Below, piece after piece: positions 7,623 to 57,882 of a stretch of DNA of 64,000 bases. The translations under genes were made by a program, and so were the position numbers. Position 1 is the first letter of the stretch. Each line of letters opens with the position of its first letter. Source of the stretch: Podarcis gaigeae (lineage: Eukaryota); the NCBI GenBank assembly GCA_964106915.2, contig OZ066919.1, one strand, 5' to 3'. The notes under the pieces are model-generated. The model saw nothing but the letters and a program-made list of their open reading frames with translations. It ran no database searches and was not told the origin of the DNA.

Positions 7623-7869
7623 GCAAGAGAACCAGAGCTGAACGACCAATATGAGGGGATGTGCGAATCAGCCTACAGCGAAGCAGAATCGGCCACTGTA
7701 GAAGTCCTGGACCTGCCTCTTCCCAGTTACTTTCGCTCCCGGAGCCACAGCTACCTCCGAGCAATCCAGGCAGGCTGCTCCCAAGAGGAGGACACCATCT
7801 CAGTGCGGTCTCTCTCTCCACCCCCAGCCAACAGCATCAGTGGCAGTCGGACGCTTCCCAGCAACAGCA
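7623..7869 (+). CDS. DLGAP4: DLGAP4 internal coding exon with GKAP/SAPAP repeat
   Basis: ttcttgcAG acceptor, A|GTAAGT donor (phase 1); encodes AREPELNDQYEGMCESAYSEAES...LDLPLPSYFRSRSHSYLRAIQAGCSQEED..., containing the SAPAP family repeat RSHSYLRAI. Confidence 0.96.
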
Positions 7870-8222
7870 GTAAGTCTGACCATATGGAGCTGGAGTGGAG
7901 GGGAGCGGGAACTGGAGGGGGTGGCCAGACATGGCTTGGCTAGAGTGTGATGAACTTTGTAAAGAGAGTTTTGAGCACAACATAAATTTCCAGGTCGGTG
8001 TTGCTTCAAAGAAGCAGTGACTGGGTTTTTCCATACGCACTGAATGGGGGATTTGGATCTGGTTTCAATTAACGTAAGCATTTAGAAGTTGACCTATCTA
8101 TTTATCAACTTTTTATATCTTATATTCTATTTCTGTATCAGCGCTACAGAGAATGATTTGACTCAAAAATCAGAGTGCAATCCAGCCAAAGTTCAGTATT
8201 ATGGAGGAGTCTTTCTCCTCTA

Positions 8223-8464
8223 CAGTGGTACCTCGTGTTATGTACTGTCCCCCTTATGAATGCTTCAGGTTACATGCTCCAATAACCCGGAAGTAGATGC
8301 CCCTTGTTGTGAACTTTGCCCCAGGATGCAAGCAGAAGTCGCGCTCCAGCAGTGCGGCAGCAGTGAGAGACCCCATAAGCGAAAGTGCGCCTCATGTTAC
8401 AAGCCATTTCCGGTTACGAATGGACCTCCGGAACGGATTAAGTTCGTAACCAGAGGTACCACTG
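8223..8464. mobile_element. Tc1/mariner-type MITE
   Basis: TA|CAGTGGTACCTC...GAGGTACCACTG|TA. Confidence 0.9.
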
Positions 8465-8627
8465 TATTCCCTTTATGCCACATTGCTAGGCACTTTCTGT
8501 TTCAGTGTGGCATAGAAATGCTTCTTTTCCATACCCTAGTATGAATATATCTAAATGGGATTGTTTGATTGTAGTGATATCCTAAAGGAATATATATAAT
8601 AACTCCTCCTCATGTACTTGGGAGAAG

Positions 8628-8752: not shown

Positions 8753-8891
8753 GGTGTTAAGATCCGGCCAGCAGTGGTTTCAAATCTTATCTTGTCCACC
8801 ATCAAGGGCTAGTTTCCTAGGCACGACAAGTTTAAAACAATCTTGGAAACTGACTGTTAATACAGGGTCTGCCGAAGATTTTAATCACCAC

Positions 8892-9035
8892 TAGTTGTTC
8901 CGTAATTAACTGGGCTGCCACTGCAAGCTTCTGTCTAGGCAAGGGCCACTGATCCACCCATACGGGGGTGTCTGTGGTCCAGCAGAGAGAAAGCGCAGTC
9001 CGGGGCATGGCAGGGGCAGCCCTCAGCATAAATTT
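8892..9035 (-). pseudogene. pol: ERV pol 5' stub (first ~45 aa of RT), remainder deleted
   Basis: LCWTTDTPVWVDQWPLPRQKL...LITEQL matches the beta/alpha RT N-terminus (W.SD.PVWV.QWPL..EKL....L..EQL); similarity stops after EQL and the frame stops at 8832. Confidence 0.9.
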
Positions 9036-9730
9036 GTAGAAATTGTAGTTTCCGCTGCAGCAAGCAGATCTCGCCCCCAAAGGGAGACGGGAATGTCCAG
9101 AACCAGTGGTAAGATAGTCATCTCAAAGCCTTGTGAGCCTTGAATCAAAATAGGGTTCCTGCTGCGTCGGGCAGCTGCAGCGCCACCAACGCCAATAACA
9201 GAGGAAGCTGGCTCAAGTGGCCAGGCGGAGGGCCAATCCTTAATAGCAATCACAGAACAGTCTGCCCCCGTGTCCAAAACCCCTTCAATCGTGCGACCCC
9301 CAAGGGTCATCTGGATCTTTGGACGCTTCTCTGTGACTGGGAAGGTAGCAGCAACAAGGGGGTCATGGTCCTGGGTTGGCCCTGGGACGCATATGAGCTT
9401 TGCTATAGGAGAACCTGATTGCAAACGTGCCTGGCGATCAGAAAATACAGTCACATAGGGGTCATTTTGTTGTAATCCATGTAAAACATCTGGAACAAGG
9501 TGAATCCCATGCTGCAAAACCTCTGACAGTGGAAAAACAAGGCACTGTGCTGAAGAAGAAAAACCAGCCTCTAATGACACTCTGACTTGGTGTGGTACAT
9601 AGGGGACTGGCAGGTATAAGTCCTGAATTAAAAGGAGGCGGGGCAAGGCCGGAGGTGAGATGGCTGGAGAATGCGCTGGATCCCCTATTGTTGAGCCTGG
9701 GCCCGGGGTGGGCCCGACTGCCGGTTTCCC
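9023..9730 (-). CDS. pro: ERV Pro (-1 frame): degenerate dUTPase-like domain plus aspartic protease
   Basis: LDTGAD active site, WPSAWP, IGVGG flap, LWGRDLL; upstream segment ends GSPIAKLICVP (cf. dUTPase motif G.RIAQL); entered via G GGA AAC. Confidence 0.93.
   Translation of the reverse strand, partial: GKPAVGPTPGPGSTIGDPAHSPAISPPALPRLLLIQDLYLPVPYVPHQVRVSLEAGFSSSAQCLVFPLSEVLQHGIHLVPDVLHGLQQNDPYVTVFSDRQARLQSGSPIAKLICVPGPTQDHDPLVAATFPVTEKRPKIQMTLGGRTIEGVLDTGADCSVIAIKDWPSAWPLEPASSVIGVGGAAAARRSRNPILIQGSQGFEMTILPLVLDIPVSLWGRDLLAAAETTISTNLC
9029..9035 (-). promoter_or_regulatory. pro-pol -1 slippery heptamer A AAT TTA
   Basis: At the end of pro (T-N-L-C-stop), in register with the RT frame; same heptamer as RSV gag-pol. 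Confidence 0.8.
9680..9730 (-). promoter_or_regulatory. gag-pro -1 ribosomal frameshift site with H-type pseudoknot
   Basis: GGGAAAC (9730-9724), spacer, then GGGCC-CACCCC-G-GGCCC-AGGCUCAACAAUA-GGGG: stem 1 GGGCC/GGCCC and stem 2 CCCC/GGGG, the layout of the SRV-1/MPMV signal. Confidence 0.85.
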
Positions 9731-11250
9731 GTCGGTTGATTTTGCTGGTTCTGTTGAGGCGTGGCGGAGCGACACTGATTGGCCCAGTGGAAACCTTTTT
9801 TGCAAATGGGGCATTTTGTGCTAGGACGACTTTGCTCTGTATTAGATCTGCACTGTGCACGAAAATGGCCCACTTTGCCACATCCATAGCAGGTTTTATC
9901 CTTTGCAGGATTTTTGGACACAGTGGAGGATAGAGCTGCGGCTAGCAAGCGAGCTTTATGTATCTCAGTCCCCACCGATTGGCAGGCTTTAAGCATATCT
10001 GCAATGGCTACATTGGGAGTTGCCAGCAAAGGGCGTAGTGCTTGCTTACAGTCCTCATTCGTATTATCAAACGCAAGCTGGCGGACAATCACTGCTTGGG
10101 CTGCTACGTCCTGAACTTGCCGTTTAAGGGTGTTATACAAGCGATCGACAAATTGTCCATAGGGCTCTGTAGGACCTTGTCTAACGCTCCCCCATCGGCC
10201 ATCGCGCTCAGTTTTGTCATCAGGGACAGAAGCCAAGGCCTCCTGAGCAGCAGCCGTAGTGGCCTCCCAATATTGAGGATCGAGAGTTAGTTGTTGGGCA
10301 GCAGTAAGAAAATTGCCTCCTCCCGTTAATCCATCGAGGACATCAGCTTGGGTTAACATGACGGGGGGTTGCGGTGGTGCGGCACCAGCAGCGGCAGCAG
10401 CCAAAGCAGCCTGATGATTAGCCAATGCAACATTATTAAGATTATTCCTAATCCCATCTGCACGACGTTGGCAGGCCCAGTGCCAAGCTTGTATAAACAA
10501 AATCATTTGATGAGGCTGCATTACAGTGCGGGCCAACAGCTTAACATCCTCTGGTATCAAATTTTGTTGAAAAATAGTGGCAAACAAGCCCAAGGTGTAA
10601 GGAGATTGCAAGCCATTGTTCTGGACAGAGGAATACAGTTCTTTTATGAATCTCAAATCAAACTGTTCGTGCCGGGCTGGGCCTCCCCCTGGCGCGGCAG
10701 GAGCAATCACAGGAAAAAGATTAGGAGTTGTAGAATCAAAAGCTAGCAACGGAGCAGCGGCGCGAAGAGATTCTTGAAGTGGGGTGGAAGCGGTGCCAGA
10801 TGCCTTGGGCGGAGGAGGTGGAAGAGCGGGGGGTGCTGCAGAATTTGAAGAATGCAGGGGAGTGACAGGAGGAGCCGAAGGGCAAATGTCCGGTGGTTTA
10901 GGAGGCAGGTTTGAGGCAGGCAAAGCGGGAGCTGGGAGGGCAGGCGAAGAAGCTGTTGCGGCAGCCAGAAGAATGTTTGAAGGAGTTAAGCACGACATAG
11001 CTTTGTAGACGTTAGACCAGGCATGCAAAACTTTGACATCAATCTGAGGATGATTTTGAAAGAAGTGTCCAATTTTTTTCCAATCGTCTAACGCATAATT
11101 TCCGTCCTGGGGGAACCAGGGACAGTGAGTGTCCAGGGCTATTATAAGGGACTTAAGGTCAGCTTTCTGAACAGCAAGGTTGTTACTGGCCAAAAGGAAT
11201 TTAAGGTCTTTATAAAAATTTTTCTGTGGTGCAGAGAGAGACTTTCCCAT
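9685..11250 (-). CDS. gag: ERV Gag polyprotein, intact 521 aa
   Basis: MGKSLS myristoylation motif; beta-type matrix CPWFPQDG..W..IG; PSAP late domain; F/PV MA-CA cleavage site; MHR VRQGPTEPYGQFVDRL; two CCHC knuckles CYGCGKVGHFRAQC and CPICKKGFHWANQC. Confidence 0.97.
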   Translation of the reverse strand: MGKSLSAPQKNFYKDLKFLLASNNLAVQKADLKSLIIALDTHCPWFPQDGNYALDDWKKIGHFFQNHPQIDVKVLHAWSNVYKAMSCLTPSNILLAAATASSPALPAPALPASNLPPKPPDICPSAPPVTPLHSSNSAAPPALPPPPPKASGTASTPLQESLRAAAPLLAFDSTTPNLFPVIAPAAPGGGPARHEQFDLRFIKELYSSVQNNGLQSPYTLGLFATIFQQNLIPEDVKLLARTVMQPHQMILFIQAWHWACQRRADGIRNNLNNVALANHQAALAAAAAGAAPPQPPVMLTQADVLDGLTGGGNFLTAAQQLTLDPQYWEATTAAAQEALASVPDDKTERDGRWGSVRQGPTEPYGQFVDRLYNTLKRQVQDVAAQAVIVRQLAFDNTNEDCKQALRPLLATPNVAIADMLKACQSVGTEIHKARLLAAALSSTVSKNPAKDKTCYGCGKVGHFRAQCRSNTEQSRPSTKCPICKKGFHWANQCRSATPQQNQQNQPTGNRQSGPPRAQAQQ

Positions 11251-11274
11251 GATTGCAAGAGTTGCAAAAGAGCA

Positions 11275-11594
11275 GGGAGCACTTACCGGAGGGATCCTTA
11301 GGAGGATGAGGGAGGCGCCTTTTGCCCTGTCCGGGCGGAGATAAGTGCTGATAAATCCGTAACGTAGTCCAGAATCACATTCACACGGGAGCTCTCACCG
11401 GGGATCCACAACGTGGATGAACGACGCGTCTGCAGTCCTGGCAGGCGAGGTGAGGCTGAACGTTGTAAAACAGCATGAAGTCCGAAAGAAATCACACGGG
11501 AGCACTCATCAGGGATCCACTACGTGGATGAACGACGTGTTGGTGAGCGCTGAATAAGACAACGTGAAGTCCGAAGGCCTCACACGGGGCACCA
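11275..11594 (-). repeat. ERV leader made of ~3 tandem ~110-nt repeats
   Basis: GGATCC at 11292, 11402, 11513; TCACACGGG at 11381, 11492, 11580; shared GTGGATGAACGACG and GAAGTCCGAA blocks; major splice donor G|GTAAGT on minus at 11286-11281. Confidence 0.85.
11578..11594 (-). promoter_or_regulatory. Primer-binding site complementary to elongator tRNA-Met
   Basis: Minus strand TGGTGCCCCGTGTGAGG; + strand CCTCACACGGGGCACCA equals the recalled 3' end of vertebrate elongator tRNA-Met(CAU) including CCA. Confidence 0.85.
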
Positions 11595-11596
11595 AT

Positions 11597-12022
11597 TGTC
11601 GAGTTGCAGCTCGGCATTCAAGGAAAAATCAGTCTCACACCATAGTAGGTTCCGAAATATGGCCGCTCCTAGGGCTCATGCAGCACAGCTTTTATTGTGT
11701 GAAATCAGAAAGATACAAAATACAAGCCAAGCAATTTGTTCTAGCAAGCAGATAAGGACCTTCGCACTAGATCAGGCCATGCCACGTTAGCCAATCATAT
11801 AGGACAGCACGAGCTGTCCACGCACTGTTCATGCTCCAAGGATGCTTCTAGCTATGAAATCACCCTGTAACAATAAGAACCTTGCTTATGCTCTCATGTA
11901 CAAGCAATCATTTTCCCACAAGCTAGCAACGGCACGTGACTTTAAATGTTCGTGAAACAGCTGGTCAAGTACTATATGATGCCAAGAGGTCTCTCTTTCC
12001 ACCCGTAATCCTCTTACTCACA
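11597..12022 (-). mobile_element. ERV 5' LTR (~426 bp)
   Basis: Minus strand ends ...CAACTCGACA 2 nt before the PBS; proposed start TGTGAGTAAG is an imperfect inverted repeat of that end; AATAAA on minus at 11691-11696. The 12022 boundary is inferred only. Confidence 0.72.
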
Positions 12023-12463
12023 GCAAAGGATTCTTTTTTTTTTCCCCACAGATGGGGTGGGGCCACAAGCACAGTAAGCTAAGAGCCCAGTCCTTGCTTC
12101 ATTTTGTCTCTCCAGACAACAGTTGGGTTGGGTGGGTGTGCTTTTCCACTGATTTCATTTGGAACATCACCGAGAAGTCTGTGCTAATGGACTTCTCTCA
12201 ACATCCCACCTTAGAAAGTCTCTAGAAAGAGACTTAGCTGTGAGTGTGAACCTGTCTCACTTAGCAAAATGTCAAAACCTGGCCAAGATGTGTCATAAGG
12301 AGGGACTGTTACAAACAATTTCTTTAAGGACGGCCTCATTTTGAGGCCTCTTTGCATTTAACACTGTTTGTAAATGAAAGATAGCAGACTGGTACTTTGC
12401 TGACATTAAATATACAGTGTACGGTATATACACAGAGGAGCCCATATTATTAGTCTGTCATTA

Positions 12464-24600: not shown

Positions 24601-26309
24601 AGAGCTGAATAAATATCCAGTCTAGAAATTTGTGTTTGATTCTGCTTTCAGTGTGTCTGTTCTGGATGCTAAGGCACTAAGTTTCCATTGAAAAATAAGT
24701 CAGCTTTTGTGAATGTTCTATAGTTCACTGTGCAAGCATGGAATTTTGGATCAGACTATAAACTGCTTATATGTAGGACCTTATAAAAGGCCATTATTCT
24801 TTCCAAGTTTTTGTTGTTATGGTTACAAAGACAGGGGAAATGCGGGCAGAATTCTCATGATAGCCAAGTGCCTTTCTAAGCCTTGAAAGAGGAACCTCCA
24901 CATACAGAGGCAGTATAGGTATATCTGAATGTCAGATGCAGAAACAAACAACAGAGGCTGTGCTCAATTTGAAAGCATCCAGAGCCATTGGGTTGACTTC
25001 AGCTGGAAACAAAACACTGTACTTGGTGGTCCTTGGACAGAGCAAGGCAATTCGTATTTTCTTCCTCTTATTGCCTTGCTTATTTGGAGGGTCACCTAGA
25101 AAAGCATTTTAGTTTCCAGCTGAAACTAACTCAGTGCCTCTGGATGCTCATTAAGTGAACCGCTGTAGGTTTTCAGGGTCTGGTTTACTCCCCACTCCCC
25201 TCAATCCTTCCTTTCCTTAGCAGAGAGATGGCTAACCTGTGGCCCTCCCAGCTGTTGTCCATCATTCGTGGCCACAGGCTATGCTGATGGGAGCTGAAAA
25301 TTCAGTGGGTAAGCCTCCCAGCCCTACTATGGTGTGTATTATCCAGCATGTTTACTCACGAACTGTCTGAAGAGATGCCTGGCATTGTTAAGGCAGCAGG
25401 GACTAAAGGTTTCTTGTTCATTCATTCTATTTTTAACTCTCCCTTTCTCCACGGAGGTCAAGGTTCCCTGTGTGGCTTCCCTTAACTCACTGTAATAGCC
25501 CTGTGTAGTAGATGTTGACTTGCCCAAGGTCATACTGAATGCTCTGACTTTTTAGAGGCCAGATTTGTATACCTCCCCCCCCACAAAATTTCATTTCTTA
25601 AAATGTATACACAGCTTGACTTGGTTTGTGTGTTTTTTTTGTGGGGGTTCTTTGTTTTTGATTTTTTTTAAAAAAAAGAGCCCTCAAAGCAGTTTGCAAA
25701 AAGAAGCCAGCAGTAATCTTGTGCCTTGTTGGTAAAACAGGGGTTGCCAAGGGGGAGGCCAGATGTTGCTGGACTACAACTGCCACCCTCCCTAACCATT
25801 GGCCTTGCTGGCTGAGGCTGATGGAAGTGGGAGTCTCATCAAGCGAGGAGCACTCTATTGCACTCCCATTCCTGCTTGATGGTTTCCTATAGGCAACTTG
25901 CTCACCAATGTGAGAATAGGATGCTGGCCCACATGGGCCTTTGGCCTGATCCAAGCAGGGCTTTGGGGTCCAATGATCTGGAGGGTCACAGGCTCTCTAC
26001 CCCTGCCATAAACTCCAGAGATAAACTGCTAGTATAAAAGTATTGTAATAATGAAAGCCTCAGGCTATCCCATGGAAGGGGCAGCCACAGGGCACAAAAC
26101 TGTGCCTGAAATTTAATCCACGCAGAGATGAGGCCAATTAGACTCACCGGCATTGGGGACAATGAAGCTGGCACCATCCTTTGCCCTTGGTTTTGATGGT
26201 AAACTGGGGTACCAACTTGAATAAAATATGGGGAGGGGCAGATAAGCCCCACCCTGTATGATCAATCACAAAATGTGGTGTGCACACACCATTTGAATGG
26301 CAATAGCCA

Positions 26310-26564
26310 GTGGCGCTGTGGGTTAAACCACAGAGCCTAGGACTTGCTGATCAGAAGGTCGGCGGTTCGAATCCCCGAGACAGCGGGAAGGTAAACGGTG
26401 TTTCCGTGCGCTGCTCTGATTTGCCAGAAGCGGCTTAGTCATGCTGGTCACATGACCCGGAAGCTGTACGCCGGCTCCCTTGGCCAATAAAGTGAGATGA
26501 GCGCCGCAACCCCAGAGTCAGCCACGACTGGACCTAATGGTCAGGGGTCCCTTTACCTTTACCT
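26310..26564 (+). mobile_element. Sauria SINE with ~90-bp internal deletion
   Basis: Highly similar to the 772-1118 copy but lacks the segment corresponding to ~849-940; ACCTTT tail. Confidence 0.9.
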
Positions 26565-26659
26565 ATAAACTCGGGGTGGGGGGCTGGCCCCTCAAATACT
26601 TTATTGGAGGGTCAATGGGATCTCAGCTCCCACGAGTTGGCTCCTAGGATGGAAACAAA

Positions 26660-27850
26660 TGGCGTGGGAGCTGCAGGTGGGGAGGAGGGCGCCTGCTCTC
26701 GGCGGCTGTCCTGGAAGCAACCAAAGATGGAAAGCATCCCTCGGCGAGATCCGGAGCTATTTCAGGGCTGCTTCGGAGTCGCGCGTGGTTCTTCCCTCCG
26801 CCCCGATTCTTCCCGCCATCCGCATCTTCGCCGCGCAGCCAGGAAGCGCCCCCTCCCTTCCTCTCCCCGGGGGCGCGCGCGCAGACACACCTGTAGTCCA
26901 TCTGCTCGTCCTTCCCGCCCATCCCCGCCCCCGCGGGAAGGAAGCCTCGCGAAGCTGGCGCGCGTGTAGCGGGGCGCCGGTGGGTGCCCACCCGGGCGCC
27001 ACACCTACCGCGGCGGCGGGGGAAGGAGCCTCTCGCGCGGCCCCCACCTCCTTCACGAGCTCTCCAAATCTCCCCCACCCCACCCCAACACACACATACT
27101 CCTCCCCGCAAAAAAAAGGAGGGGACAGGCAGCGCGCGAATGGGCGCCTTGTGAGCATGTGCGGAATACTAGCTGGAACTGGTTTCGCGGAGGGCGCTTG
27201 TGAGCTGCAAGGAGCGGCTGGCTCGTCCTGCGCGCTTCGCCACAGCCGACGAGGCTCCGGGCGGCGCAGCAGCGCCCTCCCCTCTCCTGCCATTGGCAGC
27301 CCCGGCCAGGCTTCCTTCCCCCGCCGTCGGGAGCGGCTGGGTGTTCTCCTCTTCCTCCTCCTCCATCCCGGCCTCCTCGGTCTTCTCAGCCCTTGCGCCG
27401 CGCCGCCCGCAGCCCTTGGCCGCCTTCGGGGCCTGCCTCCTCCGGTCTCCGGGCGCGGCCCGGCGAAGGTGGGCGTGGCGAACCCGGGGCTTTCGCAGCC
27501 CCCCGACGCTCCTCCCCTTGGAAGTACATAACGGGAGCGGATGGGGCTGGCTGAGTGAGGGAGGAGGGTGAGTGTGCGCGGCCAAAGCTCGCTTGCGCGG
27601 CTCGGTTACTTTGTGTCTTTTTCCAGCGCCGGTTCCAGCGTCGCCCAGCAGCCGCTGCCCGGATCTCCGCAGGGCAGGCCCGGCCCGGCTCTGGTCTCTC
27701 GCCCGTCGTCCACTCCTCCTTCTTCGCCCGGGAGCTGCTCGCTGCTGTTGTTGTTGTCGTGTGTTTTTTCTCAATGAACAGGGCGAAACCCGGCTCTGCC
27801 CTTCTGCCGTAGTGCGATTCCTTCTCTTCGCTTTCAAGGCGAAAGGAAGA
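26660..27850. promoter_or_regulatory. Intragenic CpG island 1 / alternative DLGAP4 promoter
   Basis: ~1.2 kb very GC- and CpG-rich stretch against an AT-rich, CpG-depleted background; GC boxes; donor GG|GTGAGT at 27568; short-isoform exon immediately downstream. Confidence 0.85.
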
Positions 27851-27936
27851 ACAGTCTTCTCTCCTTTTTTCTCTTTTCTTCTCTCTCTCTTTCCCTTCTT
27901 TCTCCCTTTTTAGCCCCCCCCCCCCCATCTTGTGTC

Positions 27937-27967
27937 ATGGCTTTGTGTCTGGAGCTATTTAAACAAT
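27937..27967 (+). CDS. DLGAP4: DLGAP4 short-isoform alternative first coding exon (MALCLELFKQ-C)
   Basis: gtcATGG start, ATG GCT TTG TGT CTG GAG CTA TTT AAA CAA T|GTGAGT; phase-1 donor matches the phase of the 7869 donor; resembles the recalled mammalian short isoform N-terminus MALCLELLKQCSSCLVAYKK; lies at the 3' edge of a CpG island. Confidence 0.85.
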
Positions 27968-30054
27968 GTGAGTGTACTGAATTGTGTGTGGGCTTTTTTC
28001 CATTATGGCATGCAAATCTCGGGAAGGCTTTGCAAGCGGCCGCTCAAGGTTGTGCTTCATATATATATATATATACTGTATTGTTTTCAGTTTGTCGGGC
28101 TGTCATTTTGAATGCATCCGTTCTGTGCATATATCGCATAATGCTCTAGCTGGTAGACCTTTAAATGCAAAAAAGGGGGGGGGGGAATCATTCCCATTTC
28201 CTGTTGTGAGCGAATTGCTTTCGGATACAGAAGTGCTCCGAGTAAGTGGGCGGGTGCTGAGGGTAGCCTGCTTGGATGTGGGAAAGGCTTGGTTTTTTCA
28301 ATGGCTTACCCGCTTCCCTTTTTTCCTGCCTATCCGGTTGCATTTTCAGCTAAATCCTGAGCTTGAGTGGCTTGTATTAATGGGGGGGGGGAGGCGAGGT
28401 TGATGGCACATATGCCCGGTTCTCCCCACTGCATGGCTCTGTGCTTGATCAGAAATTGTTGTCACTTTTGCTGAGATATATTTAGTCTACTCGTGGCATT
28501 CCAGATCATGACAGGATATGAAATCACTTTCCTATATTTATGCCATCCCAGACTAAACGTGAGCCATATGTGCATTTGTGTCTGCTTGAGTAATGAAAAG
28601 ACACAGATTGGGGGTTAATCATCTAGTTTTTCCTTAATAGCACTGCTGTTAGTTGAGCATTTGTGTTATCTTATTAATATTTTAAAAAATGGTACTAAAA
28701 GTTCTAATATTTTCCATGTGTGTGACATAAAAATTGTCTGGGCACAAACTGTGCAAACCTGTACAGTTGTGATTGAGATGTATCCTGTCACAGATTGCTG
28801 CTGAAGGCTGCTAGGAAACAGGGTGTTCTTAATGGGTTGGGGGAAAACTGCTGATTTAAGGCTTCTTCACATCACATATTGCCTAAAGCCACAAAGTAGA
28901 AGGAAAGGTGACATGAAAGGACACCCTCTTTCCCTTGTAGAACTGAAAGAACTTACAAGAAATGAACTCATTGGGGATTTCTTAAGGAGCCCTAAGCAAA
29001 TATAATGATATATTACAGATATAAAAACCAGTGCCTGATAAAACAAGAAATTTTCCATTGAGATGTGATGCCCAGTTATCTGAAAGTGTGTGATTTTGCC
29101 CCTAAGCATGTGGCTAAGGCACTGCAAAATTAGAGAGTACTTTTTTAAAAAAAGCTTTAAATGATGATAATATGACAGAATTAATGAATGCATGTAGACT
29201 TGTGGGTAGATATATGAGTAAAGTTTTTACAGCCCTAACACACCTTGGAATTCAGTTTCCAAATATGGTTTGCTTATTTTTCCTTTCCTATCATGAACAC
29301 ATCTTCCACCCTGCCAGATCTTTATTCATTATGAAACAAATTCCTGGGTACATAAAGTGATGCTAAAATTAAACTGCTTGTCCTGTCATCAGTATACAGC
29401 TGCATAGAGGGACATAAAAAGGTCTGGAGCCTCTTCTCTCTTTCTCTCCTTAGTGAACTATTTTCTCCCTTTTACTGAAGGGAAACCTGTCCTTGCTTTG
29501 CAGTCAGCCCTTTCCATCCCTGGGGCTTGCCTATGTGAACTGGTTCCCAAAAGAAAATAGCCTCTTGACAACGGCAGCAGAAGGTGTTGCAATGACATAC
29601 TGTGTTTATAGAGGAAAGTATGCCTGGAGTGCTGCTTATTTTGAACTAATGAGTCCTTAATTGGCCAGAATACTTTATTGCTTGGTAATCCCTGGCCTGG
29701 CTTTTCTTCATGAGATGCTCACCAGAGGTAGAGAATTGCTAAAGCGACGCTGGGCTTGCAGAATGGTTTTATTGTTGTGTATGAATGCAAAGCAAAGTAA
29801 TTCAAGGACCTGAGTGTGTTCTTACTGTAAGGAAGCCAGGTGGTGTGCCTGAATAGGCAAATAATCCTTGTGGCATACGGTAATTGCCATGTGTAATGGA
29901 CTGGATGTCCCTTATGTCAGTAGAGGCAATTTCAGAAAGTCCCTTATATCATAAATGTTAAATCTGACAAAAGCTGCAGTCGTCTTTGCACTGACACCTT
30001 ATGTGCAAGAGAATACCTGAGGACCAGGAAAAATTAGCAGAAAGAGCATATGTA

Positions 30055-56544: not shown

Positions 56545-57882
56545 GAGCATTTATTCCTGTGATTATATAACATTACCCAATAGCACTTTTTTTCTTTCCT
56601 TAGCTCACAATGCAAATGATAAAATACTATAAACACAAAGTATTAAAATCAACAGTCTGCAGCATAAACATTTTCCCACAGAGAGGATAATAGAAACAGT
56701 TAACCACTGGTTATGTGCTGTGTATATTTTTAGTTAAATACTTTAAAATTGGATTTTAAACCCTGGGAGAAAAGTCTTCACCTGCATGCACTTAAAGAAA
56801 GTGCCAGATGAGCTTCTGTGGGAAGGGTGTTATAGAACAGGAATCTTAGCACTAAGAAGGCCCATTCCTTCACAGCCACCTGGAGCAGATCTTGAGGTTT
56901 CAGTTGCCCAACACTTTTAACTGCATCTGGAGACAGGCTTGGCAATTGGTGCTGCTAATGAAGCACTAGCATAATATGATCTATTTGTCCAGTTAACAAT
57001 CATACAGGCCTATTTTGGATCAAGTGCAGTTTCCAAATTATTTTCAAAAGCAGCCCCTTGTATACAAGAGAAGCAGCCATTTGTACAACTCACTGCAATA
57101 TAGATGGGTTGTCAGTGCATGGTTAATTGTAGCTATGTTATCTCAATTTAAATATGGTAATAGCTGATAAAAGATACTCCAGGCAACAGAGGCCACTCAG
57201 GACTCTAATGGCAATGCTGGATGAATAAGCACCTATAAACTGTGTATCTGATATTCTTTAGCCCCCTTCAGAATAGGTCTGAAAGCCATTCACCTAGGTG
57301 ATGAATCACCCACCAACATTATCTCAGTTGTGTTTGGATTGAGTTTCAGTTCATTTGCCTTCATACAGTCCATCCATTACCATGCCCAGGCACTGGTTTA
57401 GGACACCAGCAGCTGCACCTGAATTTGAGAAAGCTTGGTGTCATTTGCATATCTCTGGATAACCTCAGCAGTTTTGTGTAGGTGTTGAACAGCAAGGAGT
57501 AGAGAACAGAACCCTGCAGGACGCCTAAGTAAAACTGCCAAGGGGTCAATCAACGCTCCTCTAGCACTACCCTCTGGCATCAATTATGCAAATAGGAATG
57601 GGACCTGCCACTAAGTGGTGCTTCCAATGCTCAACTTAGATAGCCTTCCCAGAAAGGTACTGTGGCCAATGCATCAAAAGCCACTTGGAGGTCCAAGGAA
57701 ATCAACAGTGTCTCATTCGTGCTTTCTCCTTCCTAGAGTGATCAAGGCAGTTTCTGTCCCAAACTCAAACCTGAAGCCTTAACTGAGATGGTTGAAAAAT
57801 CAGTTTCATCCAAAAGTAACAAGCTTGTTAGCGACAACTTTCCTGGGCACCTTACCTAGGAAGGGGATGCTTGCCACTGGCC
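56545..57882 (-). mobile_element. Degenerate L2 LINE (RT and 3' end)
   Basis: Minus-strand GVLQGSVLYSLLFNTY (GVPQGS motif) and YANDTKL (YADD motif); boundaries approximate. Confidence 0.85.

Follow-up and report, generated by a model that had tools for sequence, protein, structure and literature searches.

A 3'-truncated, unfixed provirus of a young class II endogenous retrovirus family, likely a one-ended integration, in a DLGAP4 intron of a wall lizard

An uninterrupted retroviral gag-pro cassette, antisense inside a synaptic scaffold gene and missing nearly everything downstream of the protease, raises the question of how it came to be in this state: as a capsid module retained by the host, as a member of a non-autonomous gag-pro subfamily, or as a recent insertion that has had no time to decay. 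We addressed this question for one such locus in the window, the whole stretch of 64,000 nucleotides of Podarcis gaigeae DNA that was analysed (contig OZ066919.1, assembly GCA_964106915.2). The cassette very probably represents one provirus, cut short on its 3' side and not fixed, from a class II (beta-like) endogenous retrovirus (ERV) family of very recent origin; it lies antisense in an intron of DLGAP4 and likely arose by one-ended integration.

The element lies on the minus strand and spans positions 11920-8893, where the matches to sibling copies begin and end and where an empty allele, described below, joins 8892 to 11920. These data correct the limits of 8832 and 12022 in the original prediction: the bases at 11921-12022 belong to the host, and 8832 marks only where the pol frame, read on past the junction into host DNA, meets a stop. 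The 324-bp 5' LTR (11597-11920), bounded by TG and CA, contains a TATA-like box near 11801 and an AATAAA at 11696. Next come a primer binding site complementary at 18 of 18 bases to the 3' end of tRNA-Met(CAT) (11577-11594); a leader with two 49-bp repeats that are 90% alike and each close with primer-site-like words (11381-11540); a major splice donor consensus (11281-11288, GT at 11286); and an open gag of 521 codons (9685-11250; ATG at 11250, stop at 9685) encoding MA, a PSAP late domain, CA and NC. A -1 slip heptamer in frame at 9730 is followed by a GC-rich stem (9661-9730), read by eye as a likely pseudoknot, and leads into an open pro frame (9023-9820) with a dUTPase-like remnant and an aspartyl protease (DTG at 9274). 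The second -1 slip heptamer, in frame at 9035, opens a pol stub of about 47 codons (8893-9035) that is cut at a blunt virus-host junction without microhomology (8892/8893). The rest of pol, env, the 3' LTR and the polypurine tract are absent, which bears out the predicted loss of most of pol, env and the 3' LTR. Both slip heptamers, the dUTPase-like stretch and the tRNA-Met primer had gone unremarked in that prediction. Its statement that every expression signal is intact goes too far, since the polyadenylation site of the 3' LTR is gone. A host ATTAAA is located at 8885, eight bases beyond the break, and by its sequence could supply the cassette with a usable 3' end.

Gag contains an N-terminal MG-x-x-x-S, PSAP at codon 124, the major homology region at 356 and CCHC knuckles at 454 and 480; these motifs and those of Pro were called with generally known patterns. 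In a Pfam search with a Gag query that began six codons downstream of the ATG, Gag_p10, Gag_p24, Gag_p24_C and zf-CCHC_5 scored above the cut-off and zf-CCHC below it, and the pro frame matched RVP above the cut-off (E 1e-20). The features predicted from the letters alone, from the LTR, primer binding site and splice donor to the open gag and the protease DTG, are confirmed. The dUTPase-like stretch in pro stayed below the cut-off (E 0.049; 13.8 bits against 22), and no dUTPase was found among the best 60 of 235 PDB matches listed.

The host gene, predicted as a synaptic scaffold gene on the opposite strand, is DLGAP4. Its coding exon 5' of the intron (7623-7870, plus strand) matches lizard DLGAP4 best, with 100% identity to Zootoca vivipara, and has 0 PDB matches; the next coding exon lies at the window-equivalent position 67,323, past the window end and about 59 kb from the first. 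The cassette is thus antisense in a 59-kb intron, about 1 kb from its start. Within the element, no host-sense AATAAA able to shorten DLGAP4 transcripts was found, and one ATTAAA occurs at 9627. A micro-exon considered near 12053 was rejected, as the DLGAP4 proteins compared give no support for it; a supposed second LTR near 56,680 is a chance occurrence of the 12-base LTR-start word, and BLAST gives no other LTR in the window.

The LTR has many close relatives in the genome. Among 40 of 103 candidates scored, 37 matched at 99-100%, and these were grouped into at least 22 loci, all of which were mapped on one 7.8-kb sibling that served as a ruler only. Four are solo LTRs, two span the full length, eight are internally deleted with two LTRs, three contain inversions with two integrated ends, and five, the cassette included, have one proper end; hence 16 of the 18 non-solo loci are rearranged. 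The two LTRs of a copy are identical in all 11 pairs compared. With an assumed, unmeasured rate of 1-5 x 10^-9 per site per year, 0 differences in 3,564 LTR sites place the mean family age below about 80-420 thousand years. Target duplications of 6 bp flank 10 of 11 two-LTR siblings, where they are perfect, and all four solo LTRs, and none is present at the cassette.

Nine other loci cover 11920-8893 end to end at 99.7-99.9% identity, differing from the cassette at 3-9 of about 3,030 bases. The only change private to the cassette is a missense substitution at 10062 (gag codon 397), in the capsid C-terminal domain. Among siblings, all 11 matches of complete span (one copy counted twice) have an open gag and an open pro, pol is open in two of three, and env forms a single frame in five of seven. 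One random substitution keeps both gag and pro stop-free with a probability of 0.96. Because the family is so young, with few differences between copies and one private change in the cassette, we infer that the frames are open for want of time to decay, not through selection.

How the 3' part was lost is suggested by the two ends. On the left, the element starts precisely at the LTR terminus with its terminal TG; the right junction has neither a target-site duplication nor microhomology, and about 33 host bases present in the empty allele are missing there. In aberrant integrations, integrase inserts one viral end only; the other end, frequently shortened, is joined by host enzymes, and at times flanking DNA is deleted as well (cases given in PMC5041404). 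By this route, viral integrase would have joined the left end of the cassette and host repair the broken right end, truncation having occurred at birth, likely when plus-strand synthesis after the second strand transfer stalled early in pol. Such stalling would fit the tRNA-copied form of the primer site that the cassette carries, a form seen in both 5'-only copies against one of 12 others (post hoc, p 0.03). This association hints at stalled synthesis, and the form could instead be inherited.

The main alternative is that a whole provirus integrated and a later deletion took pol through the 3' LTR, the target duplication and about 33 flanking host bases. The sequence alone would be the same for truncation at birth and for later loss of flank together with some 4.7 kb of provirus; a normal left end is what such a deletion would leave, and blunt deletions by end joining are common. 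However, a single private change allows little time for it, the loss extends only about 33 bases into the host, and in this family with identical LTR pairs one-ended loci make up five of 22 and rearranged ones 16 of the 18 that are not solo LTRs. We consider later deletion unlikely, if far from negligible; it is a variant of our best explanation and holds about a third of the confidence placed in that explanation. One-ended integration is likely, and favoured about two to one, because the copy is so young and five of 22 loci are one-ended.

The empty site was examined in four of 23 sequencing runs from two studies, covering two samples of the best-matching species (organism A; runs X1 and X3) and two other species (B, X4; C, X5). 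X1, X4 and X5 each have a contig that links 8892 with 11920 across 33 other bases; in X3, an empty site is implied by contig extent and equal depth on either side. X1 may be the source of the assembly itself, in which case that animal is heterozygous; whether or not this is so, the insertion is not fixed. No filled virus-host junction is among the contig matches listed for the four runs, and the depth of the empty allele in X1 (52.9) is close to that of the flanks (49.5-57), as might be expected if the cassette were no germline allele but had arisen somatically or as a chimera of the assembly. A heterozygote contig composed mostly of flank would, by our estimate, give such a depth too, the left junction falls exactly at the terminal TG of the LTR, and the copy is marked by a private base and by a primer-site form of its own, so that we regard an artefact or somatic origin as quite improbable.

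The empty site in the best-matching species and two others refutes co-option: the cassette has neither the fixation nor the orthology across species expected of a co-opted gag, and it is near-identical to many copies. The single private change is non-synonymous, and one change is too few to measure purifying selection. By two of the refuting signs named in the original prediction, an insertion that is not fixed and near-identity to many copies, the proposal of a capsid module retained by the host, and with it a co-opted or domesticated gag, is rejected. A weaker version would make the locus an incipient restriction factor, rising in frequency, whose Gag, perhaps altered by the private change, would hinder the invading family by analogy with enJSRV, the transdominant Gag of which interferes with infecting virus. 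The promoter, splice donor and open gag and pro, the host ATTAAA just past the break and the location of the private change in the capsid C-terminal domain would all suit such a role. Against it, both samples of the best-matching species and the two other species carry the empty allele, siblings encode the same proteins, and one missense change is what reverse transcriptase error is expected to yield; an incipient restriction factor is about as improbable as a chimera or somatic insertion. If unsilenced, the LTR is predicted to drive Gag and Gag-Pro, which would add nothing to the coding of about ten siblings.

Internal deletions in many family members might speak for a gag-pro subfamily that is non-autonomous and moved in trans. 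In this assembly such a subfamily has next to no probability, because the break at 8893 occurs in the cassette alone, one of 12 copies carrying the pro/pol start. This count, proposed in the original prediction with the break given as 8892, was obtained by searching the genome with the last 408 bases of the cassette (all 20 candidates scored): these bases occur in 12 near-identical copies, cassette included, and all 11 others run on into pol, each to its own end point except two alike. Since it has no 3' LTR or polypurine tract, the cassette cannot be copied again; lacking also RT, IN and Env, it would be a dead end, not retrotransposable even in trans.

The family itself belongs with the beta-like (class II) retroviruses of reptiles; it is young, and its TM is of the gamma type. 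The best named PDB matches of Gag are HERV-K capsids. As the cassette lacks RT, that of a sibling was used; its best PDB match (E 9e-129 against 1e-63 for the next) is one that we take to be HERV-K RT. Among the best 120 of 566 sequence matches, identity to the sibling RT is 58% for a Komodo dragon protein, 54% for turtle, 53% for cobra and roughly 50% for class II proteins of birds and mammals, and all named matches are ERV-K-, IAP- or beta-like or uncharacterised. In a midpoint-rooted tree of 50 rows, built without an outgroup or PyERV from 49 of these 120 matches (named ones plus the top 46, at least 250 residues), sibling RT falls, at 100/100 support, into a group with five unnamed proteins and those of Komodo dragon, sea turtle and cobra, hosts being labelled from database names. 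The placement proposed for Gag and Pro, carried out on Gag (PDB and sequence matches) and through this RT tree, is thus beta-like, and together with the near-identical family it upholds the idea of a young member of a lizard beta-like lineage. Other class II characters are separate gag, pro and pol frames linked through -1 slip sites, two CCHC knuckles alongside beta-type MA and CA (Gag_p10, Gag_p24 and Gag_p24_C), and the 6-bp duplication of the family. The primer is tRNA-Met(CAT) and not the tRNA-Lys required of Betaretrovirus in the strict sense. That genus also has a dUTPase at the 5' end of pro, for which the cassette offers the sub-threshold stretch noted above. Sibling TM matches Pfam TLV_coat, a gamma-type domain (E 1e-7), and sibling SU has no Pfam match; D-type betaretroviruses carry a gamma-type TM, and B-type Env is beta-type.

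Gag relatives in Podarcis muralis and P. lilfordi show 76-92% identity, which points to a lacertid host, and one in Zootoca 60%. These UniRef and NCBI entries belong to the same lineage and are auto-annotated as ERV-K-like or uncharacterised; no family description was found for them. No published description of this lacertid family was found in the literature (Repbase and Dfam lay outside the search), nor was a tRNA-Met primer combined with identical LTRs found described there for lacertids. The premise that reptile class II ERVs are sparsely described holds only in part: ERVs related to the betaretroviruses are published from pythons, other squamates and turtles (PMC6001957; clade Shui), and clade II loci are common in reptiles, a count over 92 reptile genomes having given 12,120 clade II RT loci (PMC11089739). 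What is probably new here is this lacertid family; the wider reptile beta-related lineage is already published.

The primer site may bear on the many malformed copies. ARAGORN detected tRNA-Met(CAT) genes matching the primer site in two of 23 loci scanned. The cassette pairs at 18 of 18 bases, and 11 of the 18 distinct primer sites of the family match at 15 bases only. The primer site of one sibling extends 34 bases into the tRNA; read-through of this kind is reported for aberrant HIV-1 second-strand transfer (PMC12657518). An inverted LTR-plus-primer piece is joined within pol in three siblings at two sites, each of which ranks in the top three of 7,097 for its 9-base match, and one sibling is deleted immediately behind its primer site. 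These junctions point to misprimed second-strand transfer, which the primer mismatch probably promotes, although the mismatch leaves most internal deletions unexplained. Tentatively, and with somewhat less than even confidence, we propose that an undescribed retrovirus with beta-like gag-pro-pol, a gamma-type envelope and a tRNA-Met primer site that mismatches the final bases of this tRNA is now invading wall-lizard germlines, and that the mismatch derails second strand transfer, so that most insertions are born inverted, deleted or one-ended, the cassette being one product. If true, the family would be a natural record of primer mismatch shaping an endogenisation wave.

The cassette, then, is ordinary debris, and intact gag-pro without pol is no evidence of domestication in so young a family. 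The interest lies in the family, a lacertid invasion with identical LTRs, unfixed insertions and many malformed integrations, apparently ongoing and with error-prone priming. Its junctions record reverse-transcription errors otherwise studied mostly in HIV-1 and ASLV, and it could serve for a population study of endogenisation in a reptile. Ongoing retroviral invasions are seldom documented, as stated in PMC10435555, where Podarcis muralis is among the species screened and Lacerta agilis is marked by an asterisk.

Among known systems, Fv1, Arc, PEG10 and enJSRV share with the cassette an open gag without a working pol; the cassette differs in having no orthologue in related species, no divergence from its siblings and no sign of selection. 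With HERV-K(HML-2), MMTV and MPMV the family shares its three frames and pair of -1 slip sites, its two zinc knuckles, its 6-bp duplications and the presence of young insertions that are polymorphic; it differs in an RT only about 50% identical to mammal and bird class II proteins, a Met rather than a Lys primer, a gamma-type TM and only a dUTPase-like remnant. HERV-K(HML-5) also appears to be Met-primed (PMC6114882). PyERV has been characterised as a distant relative of the B/D-type as well as the C-type viruses (PMC3230843), and the beta-like pol and gamma-type TM of the family fit this mixed affinity; the best RT match among reptile beta-related ERVs is only 58%, and the family probably shares a lineage with PyERV, the tree having recovered its reptile clade with PyERV not among the rows. 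Closest to the cassette itself in structure are the aberrant one-ended proviruses of ASLV and HIV-1 (PMC5041404), which likewise have one normal end and one that is truncated with host flank deleted; those arose experimentally, from mutant ends or drugs, whereas the cassette, judged by its structure, would be a natural case.

Three copies of the retrovirus family, each located in a stretch around a different genome locus, carry an inverted piece in pol that consists of LTR and primer site (L031:3776-4105, L039:4638-4965 and L041:4417-4760). These pieces are plus-strand strong-stop DNA inserted within pol. Their pol junctions fall at two distinct sites, one of which is common to L039 and L041. 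Because these two sites are among the top three 9-base matches to the end of the primer site, out of 7,097 positions ranked, the inverted pieces likely result from misprimed second-strand transfer.

At L033/L034, a tandem element has its middle LTR in common and an inverted LTR at the end; both outer ends are U3, and the target duplication is 6 bp. The L043 copy is of mosaic structure, combining the family's sequence with that of an older subfamily of about 85% similarity. Copies of an older subfamily are present at L047-L050 (74-90% identity), and these also contain internal deletions.

The cassette insertion is absent in organisms B (run X4) and C (run X5), and both carry family sequence elsewhere, approximately 96-99.5% identical to gag-pro, so members of the family occur under three species labels or more.

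Elsewhere in the window, the short element at 8220-8466, which is bounded by 26-bp terminal inverted repeats and covered by reads at very high depth, is likely a MITE. A GC-rich island (58-64%; 26000-28000), inside the DLGAP4 intron that also holds the cassette, is possibly an internal promoter for a short DLGAP4 isoform.

A different, further element family (L054, L061, L064, L065, L070, L072, L076 and L077) seems to share the retrovirus family's tRNA-Met primer site, with CCA next in the sequence; in some copies, primer-like words are repeated in the leader.

Among 18 distinct primer sites of the retrovirus family in L031-L046, the tRNA match extends over 15 bases in 11, 18 bases in six and 34 bases in one. 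In the last of these (L043:1644-1678), the sequence is complementary to tRNA-Met(CAT) from the primer site on, after which viral sequence resumes. This stretch reflects primer tRNA read-through and is direct evidence for tRNA-Met(CAT) as the family's primer. Read-through of the primer tRNA, as in L043 of this lizard family, is described for HIV-1 in PMC12657518.
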